Of a DNA stretch of 60,028 nucleotides, positions 37,147 through 43,236 are shown in pieces. This DNA is from Parcubacteria group bacterium. Its GTDB lineage: Bacteria > Patescibacteriota > Minisyncoccia > 2-02-FULL-40-12 > IGHO2-01-FULL-4-A. A program made the translations under genes and the position numbers. Numbering within the stretch: position 1 is the stretch's first letter; the number at the start of each line of letters is the position of its first letter. The notes beneath the pieces are model-generated. The model was not told the DNA's origin and did not search any database. It worked only from the letters and a program-made list of their open reading frames with translations. The stretch is taken from assembly GCA_043821485.1 (NCBI GenBank), contig JBDRCU010000038.1, positions 1-60,028 on the forward strand, given 5' to 3'.

Positions 37147-37175
37147 GAGTCCAATCGCCTCCAATATTCGAACCT
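37147..37175. repeat. Degenerate B repeat (left boundary)
   Basis: GAGTC-N13-TATTCGAACCT: same 29-bp length and both ends conserved versus B. Confidence 0.5.
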
Positions 37176-37183
37176 CTCTTACA

Positions 37184-37462
37184 TCATTCGGATGTGGGAT
37201 ATTGCTCTAATGTTTTCAGGGTCGCTTGCACGGATGAATTATCTGTGTTCAGAAAAGTTACAGTTTCATACGTCTCTTTGAGTCTGGTAATAACTTCATC
37301 GGCCCACGAAGGCGCCAAAACCTTTACGCCCTCAAAATCAACTTCGATCGGCTCTGTTTTTGATAAATCGCGCGTGATATACGCAGACAACGCTAAATAT
37401 GCTTCGCGGCCTGCGGGTCGAGATACCAATATATCACCAAATTTTTTGAGTTCAATGCGCAT
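37184..37462 (-). CDS. STAS-like DUF4325 protein
   Basis: L.SRPAGREA, DFEGV.V.APSWADE pattern; coupled to upstream ATPase-like gene. Confidence 0.75.
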   Translation of the reverse strand: MRIELKKFGDILVSRPAGREAYLALSAYITRDLSKTEPIEVDFEGVKVLAPSWADEVITRLKETYETVTFLNTDNSSVQATLKTLEQYPTSE

Positions 37463-37464
37463 TT

Positions 37465-38046
37465 TTAAAATGACAAAATCGCTAAACAACCCCGTATTTT
37501 TTCTCTCTCCTTTATCTCGATTGTAGTATTAAGTATTGCTTCCGCCGATCCAGAGCTAAAACTGAGATGCAATTTTTGATCTGATACGCTTTGCTTTACG
37601 AATTTAAGACCATTACCTCTGTTCTCTGGTGCACGTCCCGATAAACGCTGGGTAAAAGCTACCTCAAGTGCTTCTTTATCGTCCAATAAATCAGGCTTCA
37701 CCTTCCTAAGTGTTGTAAATACCCCACGTCCCCGGTCGGCCAAAACAATTTGTTTAGTATCTGATTCTAAATAGTACCCAAAAAAAATTCCAATCACATC
37801 GGGCCAGTTACCTATATTATGATCAAATGAATTGTTACCAATCTCACCGACAATTGCAGAGACAAGATAGGCAGTGTCTTCAGGGATCTGATCATTGTCC
37901 AATAGTTCGCTTGTTAATGAGTCTAATCGTGTTTGAAAAACATCTCGCGTCTCGCAATAGTATGGCTTATCAAGCGTAGTTACAAGAATAGGCTCGTCTT
38001 GCATCCATGCCGTAGCATTTTCTTGTAGTTTTGTCGTTTCTTTCAC
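37465..38046 (-). CDS. Histidine-kinase-like ATPase domain protein (anti-sigma/GHKL-like)
   Basis: EIGNNSFDHN, ADRGRG, GRAPENRGNGL motifs; GTG start. Confidence 0.7.
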   Translation of the reverse strand: MKETTKLQENATAWMQDEPILVTTLDKPYYCETRDVFQTRLDSLTSELLDNDQIPEDTAYLVSAIVGEIGNNSFDHNIGNWPDVIGIFFGYYLESDTKQIVLADRGRGVFTTLRKVKPDLLDDKEALEVAFTQRLSGRAPENRGNGLKFVKQSVSDQKLHLSFSSGSAEAILNTTIEIKEREKIRGCLAILSF

Positions 38047-38117
38047 AATATCTAAAGTATAGGATTAGCGGTAATAAATAGCAATATTATGATTCTCATA
38101 AGGACCTTCATTCGTCA

Positions 38118-38146
38118 GGGTCAGGAAGTACTAGCTGTTCGAACCT
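38118..38146. repeat. B repeat copy 1 (29 bp)
   Basis: GGGTCAGGAAGTACTAGCTGTTCGAACCT. Confidence 0.9.
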
Positions 38147-38186
38147 ATATTGTACAAATATAAATTTAATTATGAACAAAATGAGT

Positions 38187-38558
38187 CTATGATATTGATA
38201 TCATAACAAGAATCAAGAAGACAGTAATCGGCACTAGAGACAAGATACTCCGTCTTAGACCCTCTTCGTGAATGCCTCTCTTTCTTTTTAATCTTATTTG
38301 TATAATTCCTACAATCGAAAATATTGACCCCCAAAAAATGATTATCAAAAATATGAATTTGACTATATCTAGTACAGAGTCAATCAGATAATATATATCT
38401 GAATCAGACACCACTCTTCCCTCCATATCTGTAATAACAGGTGGTTCGATTCCAATACCAATTATAATTGCGAAAATAATCAAAACAACACCAATCAGTA
38501 CTATCCAAGAACCTATCAATGCAAACCTATTTAATTTTCCTTTATTGTCGGTATCCAT
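38187..38558 (-). CDS. Hypothetical membrane protein (3 TM)
   Basis: 123-aa hydrophobic ORF between A and B repeats. Confidence 0.7.
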   Translation of the reverse strand: MDTDNKGKLNRFALIGSWIVLIGVVLIIFAIIIGIGIEPPVITDMEGRVVSDSDIYYLIDSVLDIVKFIFLIIIFWGSIFSIVGIIQIRLKRKRGIHEEGLRRSILSLVPITVFLILVMISIS

Positions 38559-38577
38559 AATACTTTATAAGGTACCT

Positions 38578-38696
38578 CAAAATCCTATCATAATTCTATG
38601 ATCTCTACTATCTACAGTAAGCATGGTGCCGTCGTAAGGGATGTTAGAAGTATTTTTGAAAGGATGGATGACGCTACAGTCTACATTCCTACGATT
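38578..38696. repeat. A repeat copy 1 (119 bp)
   Basis: CAAAATCCTATCATAATTCTATGATC...GGTGCCGTCGT..GGGATGTTAGAAGTATTTTTGA...ACGATT. Confidence 0.9.
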
Positions 38697-38699
38697 TGA

Positions 38700-39032
38700 C
38701 TACTCGATTTGTATAACGGCAGACTTTTTGGCTCCATATTTATGTTTCATCCATTTCCTACATTCTTCAAGCATCCATAATCCATATTCGTTGTCTGGAA
38801 CAAGTTGAAAATCAACAGACCATTCTTCTTTATTCTTTTTTGATGGGGTCTTCAATAAAATAATTACATCTATATCCTGCGGTCTCGCTTTTGCTGTGGT
38901 AAAGCTACCAAGCAGGTGAATAGATGAGATGGGAAGTATTTTTTTTAATTTCCCTATCACGCCTTTAGCGTTTTTCCACATTTCTTTACGGTACTTCGTA
39001 TTAAGCATTTCTGGTGGCATAAATGATTTCAT
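38700..39032 (-). CDS. Minimal nucleotidyltransferase (MNT-like) domain protein
   Basis: LLGSF......DIDV...VD Pol-beta-type signature, 110 aa. Confidence 0.7.
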   Translation of the reverse strand: MKSFMPPEMLNTKYRKEMWKNAKGVIGKLKKILPISSIHLLGSFTTAKARPQDIDVIILLKTPSKKNKEEWSVDFQLVPDNEYGLWMLEECRKWMKHKYGAKKSAVIQIE

Positions 39033-39087
39033 AAATAAATTAATTAATCTATTCTTAACTCTTTATTTTTCCAACATCCCATAGGCA

Positions 39088-39116
39088 GGGTCAGGAAGTA
39101 CTAGCTGTTCGAACCT
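39088..39116. repeat. B repeat copy 2
   Basis: Identical to copy 1 over 33 bp (39086-39118 vs 38116-38148). Confidence 0.9.
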
Positions 39117-39177
39117 ATTTAATATATAAAATCTATAAAAATTTAAAAATATCACTGATTACTCTATACTCAAAATT

Positions 39178-39405
39178 TTATTTTAATAACTTCTCAAAAT
39201 CTTTTTTACTAAGCTGAACATCTCTTATTATTTTTCTTAAAAGTCCCTTGCCTATCTTTTTATGATCTGGGACTGTGATGGGCTTCTTACTCCCGTCTTG
39301 ATGATGCAACCTTATATGACTACCTTTTTTGCGGACAATAAAATAACCCATTTTCTCAAGGACTCTAATGATGCGAGATCCCGACAATTGTTTCAGAGAC
39401 GGCAT
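39178..39405 (-). CDS. hicA: HicA family toxin
   Basis: LEK.GY.IVR.KGSH..L.H......TVP.H..I.KG.L.KI. Confidence 0.88.
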   Translation of the reverse strand: MPSLKQLSGSRIIRVLEKMGYFIVRKKGSHIRLHHQDGSKKPITVPDHKKIGKGLLRKIIRDVQLSKKDFEKLLK

Positions 39406-39411
39406 TATTAG

Positions 39412-39657
39412 CTACAAGGTAATAGTATGTAAACTCATTTCCTGCGGTTTATACGAATTCACTATTTCACGATTTTCTTTCTCTTCAAGAATAAGGTTAA
39501 TTACTTCTCTTATGCCAACTAAGGCATCGTCCAATGTTTTTCCCTGGGTATAACACCCATCAAATAATGGACATTCTATAACATAAAAACCATCTTCGTC
39601 TTTTTCTACAAATAAAGGTAACTGGCGTCCGCGAATTGTAGTTAATGTCTTACGCAT
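39412..39657 (-). CDS. hicB: HicB family antitoxin (short form, upstream of toxin)
   Basis: EKDEDG.YV..CP.F.GCYTQG.TLD.AL..I.E; ATG 39657. Confidence 0.85.
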   Translation of the reverse strand: MRKTLTTIRGRQLPLFVEKDEDGFYVIECPLFDGCYTQGKTLDDALVGIREVINLILEEKENREIVNSYKPQEMSLHTITL

Positions 39658-39717
39658 AAAAAGAGTATACCACCCCAAAAAACTCTATGCAACCTCTACT
39701 CTTCTTCTACAAATCTA

Positions 39718-39746
39718 GGGTCAGGAAGTACTGGGTATTCGAACCT
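39718..39746. repeat. B repeat copy 3
   Basis: GGGTCAGGAAGTACTGGGTATTCGAACCT. Confidence 0.88.
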
Positions 39747-39772
39747 GTATTAGCTCATGAGTCTAAGTGAAA

Positions 39773-40180
39773 TTACAATGCTCTTATTTTTCCAACTACA
39801 TCGTAATACACATTCAAACCATAATAGTCGAGAGGGAGAGAGATGAATGAAGGCACTTGTTTTTCAAGAAGTACTCCTATCGCATAATCATTACTCTGGT
39901 CATCTGGTGCGTGCGGATCTAAAAGTCCTACCTTTGAAAGGCCTACCCCGTTAATATACTCCGACCAGGGTTCTTTGCTCATATATTCAACAACAAACTT
40001 ATTTTGAATAATTTCTGCTTCTTCTATAGTAATGGTGTCTGCCTCAGTAGTTTTTGAGTAATCTCTTTCTGTAAAATTGAGGACTGCATCCTCAGATGAT
40101 TTATCTCGAATTACGTAATAGAAAATCAATGAAAATAAAATCAGTATGATTATGATTAAATAAATTTGTCTTTTCTTCAT
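39773..40180 (-). CDS. Membrane-anchored hypothetical protein
   Basis: N-terminal TM; ATG 40180 lies 3 nt from A repeat copy 2. Confidence 0.7.
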   Translation of the reverse strand: MKKRQIYLIIIILILFSLIFYYVIRDKSSEDAVLNFTERDYSKTTEADTITIEEAEIIQNKFVVEYMSKEPWSEYINGVGLSKVGLLDPHAPDDQSNDYAIGVLLEKQVPSFISLPLDYYGLNVYYDVVGKIRAL

Positions 40181-40183
40181 ACT

Positions 40184-40302
40184 CAAAATCCTATCATAAT
40201 CCTATGATCTCTACTACCTACAATAAGCAGGGTGCCGTCGTGGGGGATGTTAGAAGTATTTTTGAGAGATTGAACGATGCGAGTGTTTACATACCGACGA
40301 TT
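40184..40302. repeat. A repeat copy 2 (119 bp)
   Basis: Same length as copy 1, high identity over the first ~85 bp; fills the whole intergenic gap. Confidence 0.9.
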
Positions 40303-40933
40303 ATGTCATAGCCGATAATATTGTTAAAATCTCTTCTGGGGTTCGTGCCAAATATTCAGGATTTTCTTTTTGTAATAGTTTTTCCGAATTATAGCCCCAA
40401 GTAATTGCAATAGTTTTTATATTTGCTTTTCTTGCTCCTATGATATCCCTATTCTCATCCCCAACATATAAAATCTCGACTGGCTTAATTTTATATTTTT
40501 TGCACATATTTTTCAAAATCAAGTGTTTGCCGAATATCGAACTACTGGAATAAATAAAATCAAAGTCATCTGCTATTCCGTATCTTCTCAAAACATTCGA
40601 GATATTTTCACTCGAGTTGCTTGAAACAATTCCGAGTTTATAATTACGACTCAGCTCTTGAAGTATCTGGGGCATATTAGGGAATAGCTTTATGTCCGTT
40701 TTCTTTCTCAGCTTAAAAAGAACATCTTTAACGAGTTTAGGAAGTTTCCAAAGAGGTATTCTTGCCCGCTTCATTAATCCCGAGATTCCATAATTCTTTA
40801 TATCATTCATATCGACATCGACTTCTTTGTCTGTTTTCAAGCCGTTCACAATATCCAGAACGTCCTTAAATGTATCTGCCATAGTCCCATCAAAATCAAA
40901 AACGATATATTTAATTGTCATTTTCTCACTCAT
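40301..40933 (-). CDS. HAD-IA family hydrolase (phosphoglycolate-phosphatase-like)
   Basis: FDFDGTMADT, VSSN, YVGDE.RD, TWGY. Confidence 0.9.
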   Translation of the reverse strand: MSEKMTIKYIVFDFDGTMADTFKDVLDIVNGLKTDKEVDVDMNDIKNYGISGLMKRARIPLWKLPKLVKDVLFKLRKKTDIKLFPNMPQILQELSRNYKLGIVSSNSSENISNVLRRYGIADDFDFIYSSSSIFGKHLILKNMCKKYKIKPVEILYVGDENRDIIGARKANIKTIAITWGYNSEKLLQKENPEYLARTPEEILTILSAMT

Positions 40934-41013
40934 TACTCAAATAGTAGCACGGCTTTTAAGATTTCTCTATCTATTTTCGACTTTCGAGACTCGAACCGAA
41001 TCTCTCAATATCG

Positions 41014-41068
41014 GAACCAAAAACACCCTGCTATTACAGGGTGGTTTTGATGTCATTCCACGATGGGT
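41014..41068. repeat. 55-bp copy of the tRNA-His 3' flank (hairpin plus TTCCACGATGGGT)
   Basis: 44/55 identical by manual count to 43113-43167. Confidence 0.85.
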
Positions 41069-41093
41069 CAGGAAGTACTGGCTGTTCGAACCT
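41065..41093. repeat. B repeat copy 4
   Basis: GGGTCAGGAAGTACTGGCTGTTCGAACCT. Confidence 0.9.
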
Positions 41094-41095
41094 GT

Positions 41096-41503
41096 TTATT
41101 TAAAATTCTTTAAAAAATTATCAATGGTTTTAACAGGGGCCCATCCTGTCCATGAAAATCTTTTTTGAAAATAATCGCTCTCTTGTCCGTTGATTTCTAA
41201 ATAGGTCCTCTTACTATTGGTTCTCATCTCTAGTGCTGCTTGTGGAAGATCGTAACTAACATCATATATAGAAATCTGTTTTCCTACCAATGTTCCCGCC
41301 AATAAATAAACTATATCACTGCCATCTTTATATTTTGGTCTAGAAAAACCAAAAAACTTTTTACCTTTATTATGACTTGTGAAACTTAGTCCATATTTAT
41401 TTGCTAGCTTATTAAGCTTATAGGTCCTAAGTAGATAGTGATTTATACAAAATACAACTGCAACAGCAAGTACTATAGATGAAATAATCCATGAAGTATC
41501 CAT
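41096..41503 (-). CDS. Membrane-anchored hypothetical protein
   Basis: N-terminal TM; ATG 41503 lies 3 nt from A repeat copy 3. Confidence 0.7.
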   Translation of the reverse strand: MDTSWIISSIVLAVAVVFCINHYLLRTYKLNKLANKYGLSFTSHNKGKKFFGFSRPKYKDGSDIVYLLAGTLVGKQISIYDVSYDLPQAALEMRTNSKRTYLEINGQESDYFQKRFSWTGWAPVKTIDNFLKNFK

Positions 41504-41506
41504 ATC

Positions 41507-41578
41507 CAAAATCCTATCATAATTCTATGATCGCTACTACCTACAATAAGCAGGGTGCCATCGTGGGGGATGTTAGAA
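41507..41578. repeat. A repeat copy 3 (72-bp core)
   Basis: CAAAATCCTATCATAATTCTATGATCGCTACTACCTACAATAAGCAGGGTGCCATCGTGGGGGATGTTAGAA. Confidence 0.88.
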
Positions 41579-41627
41579 CTAGGATTAGACAGTTTCAAGG
41601 GTATATCCGTCTTCCTATTGTTAGCAT

Positions 41628-42569
41628 TTAAGTTGCCGTATTTAATATTGCATCATAACCAATCTCACCTTTTCTAGCTAAACTTATATTTTCTTGTAAC
41701 GCTCCCTTTTTTTCTTTATCATCGCTTTGTAAAATCTCATGCATTGCCTTAAATGCCCGTTCTATATCACCTGCACCAACCGCTTCAATAAAAGCCTCTG
41801 CATCTAATGTTCTGCGAGCTTGTTCTTTGACATATTCATTCTTTAGCTCAGCGCTTTCAACAACCGCTTTACTGGCGTCAAGAAAGGCATCACGATATTT
41901 CAAATCGCCCTTTCTCATTTGATAAATACCAAAAGCTACAGCAATAAACTCCCTTGCTGACAATAGATTATTTTTTTCGCTATATCCTGCTTCATCAGAC
42001 TCTAAAATCGCACCTTTTTCCTTATTACTAAATTGATAAAGATGTGCTAACTCATGCGATAAAACATTTCGTAAATATACGTTTCTGTATGTTTCAACTG
42101 AACCCGTTGCATTATCACTATCTATCAACTCCCTCATCTCTACTCCGAGTTTATATAGCTTTCCATAAAACGTATTCTCCTTGAAAACGTCACTTGAAGG
42201 TAGGACAACAAACGGAGTCACGTCTTCAGGAACGATGGGGTATTCTTCTGAACTTCCATTAAGTTCTTGCGACCTGCCACCGATCTCAGAAGTAAAACGA
42301 GACCAGTTTTCTTTACATAAAATAACTACCCTTGCGGTAGCTCCTGCTTGTCTACTAGTATCTAAAGATTTTTTTATTTCAATTATGTGTTCAATATCTG
42401 AAGCATCAAGAGGCTCATCGCTGTACAGTTCAATCCCATTTGCAGTTAAATCTTGATTCTCATATTTACCTACATTTGTTTCAATCCAAAGAGAAGCGTC
42501 TCTGATTTGCCGTTTCCGTTTATCTTGCGGTAATTCTTGCTCTGCATTAGCCTTTGGCATTTCGTCCAT
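41628..42569 (-). CDS. Hypothetical protein with HExxH motif
   Basis: 313-aa ORF containing SHELAHLY...E. Confidence 0.7.
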   Translation of the reverse strand: MDEMPKANAEQELPQDKRKRQIRDASLWIETNVGKYENQDLTANGIELYSDEPLDASDIEHIIEIKKSLDTSRQAGATARVVILCKENWSRFTSEIGGRSQELNGSSEEYPIVPEDVTPFVVLPSSDVFKENTFYGKLYKLGVEMRELIDSDNATGSVETYRNVYLRNVLSHELAHLYQFSNKEKGAILESDEAGYSEKNNLLSAREFIAVAFGIYQMRKGDLKYRDAFLDASKAVVESAELKNEYVKEQARRTLDAEAFIEAVGAGDIERAFKAMHEILQSDDKEKKGALQENISLARKGEIGYDAILNTAT

Positions 42570-42606
42570 AGAATTTGTTAGATGGGTAACTCTTCATTTT
42601 GCATTA

Positions 42607-43074
42607 TCAGTTTCTATCTCCTAGGTCTTCATTGCTACTAAGATAAACCTTGTCATCGGAACAACTCATTGTTTGATAATCACCACGAGCATTAGTGAGT
42701 AAAACCTTAAAACCTCCTTCATCTGGATCTGGATCATCATGGAAGGTAATTTTCACTACTTTCCATCCTTTAGAAAGTCTTTCCTCTTTGTAATATGTTT
42801 GCATCGTTTCTAAGTCTTCCTTGTCACTTCCCGAAGCTTTCTTAATGGCATCGTTCCAAGTACTAAACTCTTCTTGCGGTGGTAGCAATACTTGGTCTCC
42901 TGTCTCCAAGTCGACTACTCCATGTCCTGCTAGTTCCTCTGACTCTTCAGGACTCATTTTTCTCGTACGTCCTGCTGTCTTATCTGCTGTATTCTTTGAA
43001 GGCAACGGGACTAAAGATTCTATTGTAGATTTTGCCATGTTGTATATGTTAGCTAATATCAAATTGTTGTTCAT
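42607..43074 (-). CDS. Acidic hypothetical protein
   Basis: 155-aa ORF; first gene downstream of tRNA-His, preceded by a partial A motif (43092-43108). Confidence 0.6.
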   Translation of the reverse strand: MNNNLILANIYNMAKSTIESLVPLPSKNTADKTAGRTRKMSPEESEELAGHGVVDLETGDQVLLPPQEEFSTWNDAIKKASGSDKEDLETMQTYYKEERLSKGWKVVKITFHDDPDPDEGGFKVLLTNARGDYQTMSCSDDKVYLSSNEDLGDRN

Positions 43075-43164
43075 ATCATAAGAGGATATATCAAAATCTT
43101 ATCATAATACTAGAACCAAAACCATCCTGAATTATCAGGATGATTTTGATGCGATTCCACGATG

Positions 43165-43236
43165 GGTGGCTAGAGGGAATTGAACCCTCGATTCCGCTGC
43201 CACAGAGCGGTGTTTTACCACTAAACTATAGCCACC
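43165..43236 (-). tRNA. tRNA-His(GTG)
   Basis: G-1, GTGGCTA/TAGCCAC acceptor stem, C73, anticodon arm CCGCT-CTGTGGC-AGCGG, TTCAATT loop. Confidence 0.93.

Follow-up and report, generated by a model that had tools for sequence, protein, structure and literature searches.

The window analysed here is a whole contig of 60,028 bp from an uncultured Parcubacteria-type bacterium of the candidate phyla radiation (CPR), in which a 29-bp repeat, termed B, closes each of a string of small gene modules behind a tRNA-His gene. On balance, B is probably the distal end, of attachment-site (att) type, of small recombinase-less cassettes that were stacked behind tRNA-His in trans, and would most plausibly be a serine-recombinase half-site. 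The evidence for this reading comes from the conservation and placement of B, from a duplicated tRNA flank at the newest junction of the array, and from large serine recombinases joined to tRNA-His in other CPR genomes.

Copies, conservation, and placement of repeat B

Matches to the pattern GGGTCAGGAAGTACTRGSTRTTCGAACCT without any mismatch were found at 38118, 39088, 39718, and 41065 (+ strand; copies B1–B4) and in 0 of 100 dinucleotide-preserving shuffles, in agreement with the four 29-bp copies reported by an earlier, sequence-only reading of this DNA. On the gene (−) strand, B reads AGGTTCGAAYASCYAGTACTTCCTGACCC, and every copy terminates in ...CCTGACCC. The copies are 93–100% identical to each other and invariant at 26 of 29 positions, the variable ones being 16, 18, and 20 on the + strand (10, 12, and 14 on the gene strand); a Hamming scan of both strands of the window returned no further copy with fewer than 11 mismatches. 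All copies lie in direct orientation, each starting 2–61 nt past a stop codon, and the distance from B to the next gene start is 40–130 nt. The palindromes GTTCGAAC and AGTACT pointed out previously are present in B, and a check for restriction-site avoidance found the frequencies of AGTACT and TTCGAA in the window unremarkable. The copies are as follows.

41065–41093, − strand: B4, AGGTTCGAACAGCCAGTACTTCCTGACCC; 2 nt past the stop of a 137-aa gene, then a copy of the tRNA-His 3′ flank
39718–39746, − strand: B3, 27/29 identical to B4; after a 137-aa gene (39773–40186), before the HicB/HicA module
39088–39116, − strand: B2, 28/29 identical to B4 and identical to B1; after HicA (39178–39405), before the DUF6932 nucleotidyltransferase gene
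38118–38146, − strand: B1; after a 123-aa membrane protein gene (38187–38558), before the HATPase-like/DUF4325 pair
37147–37175, − strand: B0, partial terminal copy; 8 nt past the last array gene

B stands at every boundary between modules that have no gene in common, as expected from the proposal of an att-like site at module ends. Conservation had been said to stop sharply at CCC, and this holds for B1–B3, as their gene-strand flanks bear no significant likeness to each other, leader sequence included; it fails for B4, where the flank is homologous to that past tRNA-His. The degenerate copy at 37147 (B0), described as keeping the length and both ends of B, stood in part only. B0 matches B at 15 of 29 positions, a count that is ordinary by itself, as the window contains 156 such 29-mers. 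Over its right 11 nt, TATTCGAACCT, however, B0 equals B3; this is the sole additional TTCGAACCT that the window contains, and its strand is that of the full copies. On the gene side these 11 nt (AGGTTCGAATA) are exact, while the other 18 nt are unrelated save GAC.C, and a promoter-like site of the M10 peptidase gene (TGGACT-16-TATAAT) extends into the distal part. B0 is treated here as a genuine partial copy of B, an assignment that appears to be real in part.

A duplicated flank marks the junction with tRNA-His

The features of the junction are the tRNA gene and two copies of the sequence that follows it.

43164–43235, − strand: tRNA-His(GTG), the array anchor; 3′ end ...GCCACCC, with ACCC in common with B
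43113–43163, − strand: tRNA-His 3′ flank; ATCGTGGAAT, then a terminator hairpin (CATCCTG/CAGGATG) and T tract
41014–41064, − strand: flank copy 2, directly past B4; ∼77% identical, with a compensated stem change (CACCCTG/CAGGGTG)

The tRNA-His gene is intact (70 bits), and its 3′ end reads ...CTCTAGCCACCC; the ...CACCC end previously proposed for it was found within ...GCCACCC, matching the ACCC end of B. Apart from ACCC, B and tRNA-His have in common a displaced GGTTC.A, and only 7 of 29 positions match in the ungapped register. The flank past tRNA-His (ATCGTGGAATCGCATCAAAATCATCCTG...CAGGATGGTTTTGG) recurs past B4 as ATCGTGGAATGACATCAAAACCACCCTG...CAGGGTGTTTTTGG (51–62 nt, 77% identical), 2,099 bp downstream of the first copy; both copies fold as terminators, and the stem change between them is compensated. 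Because tRNA-His and B4 are both intact and the flank recurs past B4, the 2,099-bp block is best explained as an insertion by exchange at or right next to the common ACCC, within ACCCATCGTGGAAT at most. The flank duplicated right after B4 thus points to exchange at or next to CCC, where the sequence-only reading had placed a possible CC/CCC crossover. The identity of B (93–100%) also exceeds that of the duplicated flank (77%) and of the 120-bp intergenic repeats of the array, termed A (65–85%), which argues for constraint on B or for its resetting by recombination.

At positions 43164–43167, tRNA-His encodes ...CACC-C-A past the acceptor stem, one C short of CCA; full CCA is encoded in the tRNA-His of many CPR relatives. 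Between the tRNA-His end and the CATCAAAA-hairpin flank lie 12 nt (ATCGTGGAATCG), and at loci L037 and L038 such a flank directly follows CCA.

The same junction bears on whether exchange occurred inside B. According to this unlikely alternative, B would be a complete tyrosine-recombinase core site of arm–spacer–arm build (dif-, lox-, or integron-core-like), and the cassette limits would fall mid-repeat. The three variable positions, all within the central 5 nt between invariant blocks 1–9 and 15–29, are consistent with such a site, as are a length of 29 bp, which is that of dif-type sites, and the structure of B0, in which the first arm plus 2 nt is followed by other sequence ending in GAC.C, like a secondary-site hybrid. 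A dyad between AGGTTCGAA and the reverse complement GGGTCAGGAA is present as well; however, it is weak, with just 6–7 of 14 positions pairing as compared to ∼3.5 expected. Exchange inside B would moreover leave a hybrid tRNA and a hybrid B4, whereas both are intact and the common flank begins exactly after ACCC. The matching stretch of tRNA-His is 5 nt shorter, which would make the spacers unequal; B has neither an attC-like hairpin nor GTTRRRY at its boundary; and no tyrosine recombinase was present among the open reading frames (ORFs) of at least 150 aa scanned on the contig.

Two named classes of tyrosine-recombinase site were rejected as identities for B. Sites of the dif/pdif (XerC/D) class are 28 bp long, with 11-bp imperfect inverted arms and a 6-bp spacer, and alternate in orientation around modules; B has the weak dyad described above (6–7/14 pairs), and its copies are all direct. 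Integron attC sites are imperfect palindromes of 55–140 bp that fold single-stranded, with R″/L″/L′/R′ boxes and GTTRRRY at the crossover, and have intI and attI adjacent; B is 29 bp, unfolded on either strand, and bounded by ACCC rather than GTTRRRY, and no integrase domain occurs in the ORFs scanned.

Features of a putative serine-recombinase half-site

Serine recombinases need 2 nt in common between their sites, and the usual tRNA-targeting tyrosine integrases need more than 4. Junction identity between B and tRNA-His amounts to 4 nt only, too few for the latter and enough for the former; this is one of several inferential grounds on which a half-site of a large serine recombinase (LSR) is preferred as the probable identity of B. 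Conservation of B is one-sided, extending over 27–29 bp and stopping sharply at GGG/CCC. In a single case, the distance to the common GGGT is 28 nt from the end of the T-loop-like TTCGAACC in B and 23 nt from the end of TTGAACC in tRNA-His. B4 together with its flank forms an imperfect dyad centered on the last C of ACCC, GTACTTCC-N11-GGAATGAC. In the A118-type integrase of Listeria, the attP half-site is 25 bp, and in attB the outer zinc-ribbon motif is shifted 5 bp toward the center relative to attP (Rutherford et al. 2013, PMC3783163). Like serine-integrase half-sites, B is one-sided, stops at the crossover, is of similar length (27–29 bp versus 25 bp), and has few bases in common with its presumed partner; the putative outer motif would, as in the Listeria sites, be 5 bp farther out in the presumed attP arm (B) than in the presumed attB arm, if the role assumed for that motif is correct. 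Unlike serine-integrase sites, the second arm is kept only at B4 and tRNA-His, and the cognate enzyme is putative. B is also stacked in an array, which classical attL/attR sites permit only with a directionality factor.

Under the favored reading, B would be an attP-type half-site and the tRNA-His 3′ end an attB-type half-site. A circular cassette in which B is joined to a copy of the tRNA flank would recombine with the tRNA-His end, the incoming DNA having B at one end and its own diverged flank copy at the other. The new cassette would land beside tRNA-His, and older cassettes together with the old flank would be shoved downstream. Since the incoming DNA would bring its own flank and terminator, the tRNA-His end would be restored and usable again. 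The enzyme would most likely be an LSR encoded elsewhere, of the kind joined to tRNA-His in other CPR genomes.

Large serine recombinases end in tRNA-His in other CPR genomes

To compare tRNA-His 3′ ends in other genomes, 33 loci were used. At four of these, a downstream antisense ORF of 376–563 aa stops in the tRNA-His acceptor stem, at ...TGG GGT GGC TAG (W G G stop), and the products carry Resolvase, Recombinase, and zinc-ribbon domains, i.e., are LSRs. A profile built from these proteins led to 55 loci, many from CPR and some from Bacteroidia, and in 28 of them the LSR gene stops within, or shortly past, an antisense tRNA gene (18 tRNA-His, 7 tRNA-Ser, 2 tRNA-Gln, and 1 tRNA-Asn). As distant members of the family also end in antisense tRNAs, overlap of the LSR 3′ end with a tRNA gene is a family trait. 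These distant members, many of them from Bacteroidia, lie in tRNA-Ser (L087–L094), tRNA-Gln (L064 and L084), and tRNA-Asn (L062). The general idea of recombinase genes that overlap their att sites, put forward in the sequence-only reading, is thus borne out by 28 of the 55 loci; the VRT[YF] C termini named there for such recombinases occur in none of the 55 LSR proteins.

One LSR clade is 84–100% identical in protein across contigs labeled as different CPR classes (Nomura-, Falkow-, Magasanik-, Buchanan-, Komeili-, and Saccharibacteria) and has the appearance of an integrative element transferred widely among CPR bacteria. Its members (L046–L058 and L060) always end in antisense tRNA-His and belong to a common block of ∼4.3 kb plus variable cargo. 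On the tRNA side, conservation in this clade stops at TGGGGTG, the antisense of the CCA end, which indicates that the CC(A) end of tRNA-His is a crossover region in use in CPR; B and tRNA-His coincide at this point. When GGGT is aligned, the + strand frame of B that begins GQEV... is in phase with the W-G codons (TGG GGT) of the tRNA-His LSRs.

Recombinase-less modules were also encountered at tRNA ends. In locus L044, a second copy of 59 nt of the tRNA-His flank (terminator and following sequence) lies 2,054 nt downstream, on the far side of a recombinase-less module that is 78% identical to the cargo of the recombinase-bearing element in L046. This spacing nearly equals the 2,099 nt of the window, and the second flank copy has no preceding tRNA fragment (region 0 to +2113); L025 is identical to L044 as far as its sequence reaches. 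Two further loci, L016 (+78 to +118) and L029 (+25 to +70 past tRNA-His), hold gene-less inserts of 111 and 65 nt, respectively, between 13-nt direct repeats of the tRNA-His 3′ end, the 65-nt insert of L029 being a GC-rich hairpin.

Relatives of the array cargo lie at tRNA ends as well. The only homologue of a 313-aa cargo protein (40%) lies directly after tRNA-Arg (L045), and in two contigs tRNA-Ile(TAT) is immediately followed by a homologue of the array nucleotidyltransferase (71–72% identity), other homologues being found in strings of small unrelated genes. The homologue in L045 (1450–1540) starts 14 nt after the tRNA (anticodon region CTTCGAA), and its called start overlaps the tRNA; translation probably begins at the ATG at 1539 instead. 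In L101 (6790–6840), the sequence downstream of a nucleotidyltransferase cassette between two tRNA genes reads AGTTCGAAC-N17-GACACCC, a layout that resembles GGTTCGAAC-N14-GACCC of B and could be due to chance. A DUF6932 nucleotidyltransferase homologue (63% identical) is found in L103 in an archaeal-type context (TATA-binding protein, topoisomerase VI), and its placement suggests that this gene may have been transferred between CPR bacteria and archaea.

Organization and cargo of the array

All array genes are on the minus strand, and on the gene strand the order is tRNA-Arg, tRNA-His, the flank, five B-bounded units, and then genes for an M10 peptidase and BipA. The units are as follows.

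41094–43112, − strand: youngest block, from tRNA-His flank copy 1 to B4; 155-aa and 313-aa genes (function unassigned), A repeat 3, 137-aa membrane protein gene
39747–41013, − strand: module B4–B3; HAD phosphatase (40301–40933), A repeat 2, 137-aa membrane protein gene
39117–39717, − strand: module B3–B2; HicB-like antitoxin (39412–39678), HicA toxin (39178–39405)
38147–39087, − strand: module B2–B1; DUF6932 nucleotidyltransferase (38700–39032), A repeat 1, 123-aa membrane protein gene
37176–38117, − strand: module B1–B0; HATPase-like 193-aa gene (37465–38046), DUF4325 STAS-like 101-aa gene (37184–37489)

The GC content of the array (∼0.34–0.36) is about 3–5 points lower than that of its surroundings (0.38–0.42), and the cargo is what mobile cassettes typically carry, namely HicAB, an orphan nucleotidyltransferase, the HATPase/STAS pair, HAD, and small membrane proteins. 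In a consensus scan, promoter-like sites fell after B, within the modules.

The A repeat fills the 120 bp between one gene's stop codon and the start codon of a small membrane protein gene, at 38576–38696, 40182–40302, and 41505–41625, and each unit from A to B measures 561–585 bp. Its end, TAGAATTATGATAGGATTTTG, is promoter- and ribosome-site-like and also follows the tRNA-His terminator (43091–43112). The CCATCGTGG-type motif of the junctions at tRNA-His and B4 occurs within A as its reverse complement, CCACGA(C/T)GG. A B-like stretch in the A repeats (16/29, ending ACCC) was rejected as not significant, as the window contains 45 such 29-mers and the three copies of A do not count as independent.

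The best match to BipA in a large collection is 77% identical, and its best named matches are Parcubacteria/Patescibacteria; the neighbors of the 77%-identical BipA are not syntenic with the window. No close strains were found by exact look-up of three proteins or by a search for BipA among genome contigs. In a groundwater metatranscriptome (run X1), short contigs match array genes exactly or with 1 base different at 37930–38114, 40591–40795, 41955–42177, and 42728–43081, and one of these contigs stops 3 nt short of B1. The organism is therefore present in the sample of run X1, and transcripts of the array cassettes are probably present there too.

Nonrecombination explanations for B

It is quite unlikely that B is a cis-acting element apart from recombination, i.e., a 3′-untranslated-region RNA signal (processing, stability, or T-arm mimicry) or a protein-binding site, borne by several transcription units of other origin. 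Such a role would be compatible with the constant sense orientation of B just past a stop codon and 40–130 nt ahead of the next start, with its T-loop-like beginning GGTTCGAA, its two short palindromes, a 4-bp stem that CAGG...CCTG could close, and the presence of array genes in the groundwater metatranscriptome. However, the minimum free energy of B was no better than that of shuffles for RNA or DNA on either strand (z −0.4 to +1.2), the three substitutions give no compensatory pairs, and Rfam returned no match to B even at E up to 5. In a consensus scan, neither a terminator nor a promoter shape was found in B, and terminator-like sites lay in the tRNA flank copies instead. RNA structure and termination, which the sequence-only reading had listed as alternatives that would speak against an att site, were thus looked for in B and not found. 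A cis element would also be needed by many other genes, though no B occurs outside the array in 60 kb, and it leaves the duplicated tRNA flank after B4 unexplained.

A tRNA 3′ fragment was likewise rejected as an identity for B, which has the T-loop-like start GGTTCGAA without a matching T stem or acceptor and no tRNA model match; the best reading of this kind, a T arm split by 11 nt, is backed by no tool. Dispersed repeats such as repetitive extragenic palindromes and miniature inverted-repeat transposable elements occur in many dispersed intergenic copies and are usually palindromic; B is not palindromic, and neither strand of the 60 kb holds a copy outside the 4-kb array.

The + strand frame of B reads GQEVL(A/G)(V/I)RT(Y/C) in all four copies, as stated earlier, and it runs on for 4 to >30 codons with no common stop, so that B ends no ORF. 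It is very improbable that a + strand coding sequence (GQEVLAVRT...) has its 3′ end in B and that B preserves, at the protein level, what is left of a recombinase C terminus. The frame is open in 4/4 copies and shares its phase with the W-G codons of the serine recombinases linked to tRNA-His, and the three substitutions comprise one synonymous and two conservative changes (A/G, V/I), although three are too few to show selection. No + strand gene leads into B, the sequence upstream being antisense to the leader of the next module and containing stops within a few codons; the frame ends at differing distances past B; and a similar C-terminal peptide occurs in 0/55 recombinases. B as a present-day coding region is close to refuted.

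Searches of public genome contigs with exact and relaxed patterns returned only single chance or coding matches to B in unrelated phyla, and metagenome and viral contig collections returned none. Homologues of B near recombinases or tRNAs elsewhere, which the sequence-only reading had led one to expect, were thus not found in the collections searched, and these hold no comparative or population evidence of module movement.

Discussion

Several observations weigh against B being an att-type end of cassettes mobilized in trans. Recombinase, integrase, and transposase domains are absent from the ORFs scanned, and B has a relative in none of three public collections. Run X1 is the only public run with the organism, its contigs break at repeats, and none spans a B copy. 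The attP site of a serine recombinase is expected to be conserved in both arms, and the other arm (...ATTCCACGAT) is common to B4 and tRNA-His only, not to B1–B3; arrayed attL-like sites, moreover, are not normal substrates for such enzymes. The 11 nt of B0 fit exchange inside B, or later deletion, better than exchange at ACCC. The 5-nt shift of the outer motif and the coincidence of frames are single observations, each of which could arise by chance. Distal ends of the LSR elements could not be mapped with confidence, and the candidate distal (P′) end for one LSR clade, TTTGG/CATATATTATTTATC..., itself uncertain, is nothing like B.

The array is best supported as a small, recombinase-less variant of tRNA/tmRNA-anchored tandem islands, in which the junction repeat is not a tRNA copy. 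Boundary repeats of elements of the ssrA genomic island (ssrA-GI) and cis-mobilizable element (CIME) type typically comprise at least 15 bp of the RNA gene 3′ end. Among published systems, the tandem ssrA islands of Dehalococcoides come closest; the gene for their LSR, DsiB, overlaps the att site in ssrA, antisense (McMurdie et al. 2011, PMC3146451). There, a conserved 15-bp motif of non-ssrA sequence stands ahead of each 20-bp ssrA repeat, and some islands are without an integrase (PMC3146451). As in these islands, the units here are stacked one way behind a tRNA-type 3′ end, and the boundary repeat ends as the RNA gene and is preceded by a non-RNA motif (15 bp there; the first 25 nt of B here). 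No integrase was found in the units, which in this resemble the cis-mobilizable elements of Dehalococcoides; as in ssrA-GI/CIME elements, the sequence that originally followed the RNA gene now lies beyond the insert; and an antisense overlap of recombinase and att site is seen for tRNA-His in CPR relatives. In contrast, the Dehalococcoides repeat copies 20 bp of ssrA, whereas B has only ACCC of tRNA-His. The Dehalococcoides islands are 10–30 kb with a six-gene integration module, while the units here are 0.6–2.1 kb with one or two genes and their own promoter-like sites. No recombinase was found on the 60-kb contig (ORFs of at least 150 aa), tRNA-His serves as the target, and a copy of its terminator flank comes with the inserted block.

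The array is also reminiscent of integrons, being a one-way string of small mixed-cargo cassettes, including toxin–antitoxin genes, with site-like repeat ends and the newest cassette beside the anchor. It differs from them in that no intI was found, in its tRNA anchor, and in B itself, which is 29 bp, conserved in sequence, unfolded, and without a GTTRRRY core, whereas attC sites are hairpins conserved in structure; the array cassettes also appear self-promoted, unlike integron cassettes. In tycheposons and other tRNA-linked islands, cargo modules reportedly pile up beside tRNA genes with partial tRNA repeats between them, through tyrosine or other recombinases. The array is like these in the accretion of cargo modules next to a tRNA gene and unlike them in that B is not a tRNA fragment.

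To our knowledge, CPR bacteria (Patescibacteria) have tiny genomes, few recognizable mobile elements, and no described integrons, and in the literature searched, no paper ties Patescibacteria to integron attC in a relevant way or CPR to tRNA-gene serine recombinases. A broader and doubtful possibility is that CPR run a gene-capture platform that resembles integrons without being one, in which self-promoted cassettes of one or two genes with a short, sequence-defined, non-tRNA half-site B would be inserted at the tRNA-His CCA end by an LSR in trans, and a flank/terminator copy brought by each new cassette would heal the gene, regenerate the target, and allow unlimited stacking.

If the favored reading is true, a stack of 0.6–2.1-kb cassettes at a tRNA gene, bounded by a short conserved site and with the enzyme encoded elsewhere, would be a compact route by which CPR bacteria capture genes, such as accessory and defense-type ones, and B and the tRNA-His end form a directly testable substrate pair. 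A cognate serine recombinase, should one exist, would add a new integrase with a short site and a natural target that is defined. If instead only a fossil remains, the array adds one more case of tRNA-linked accretion, at an unusually small scale.

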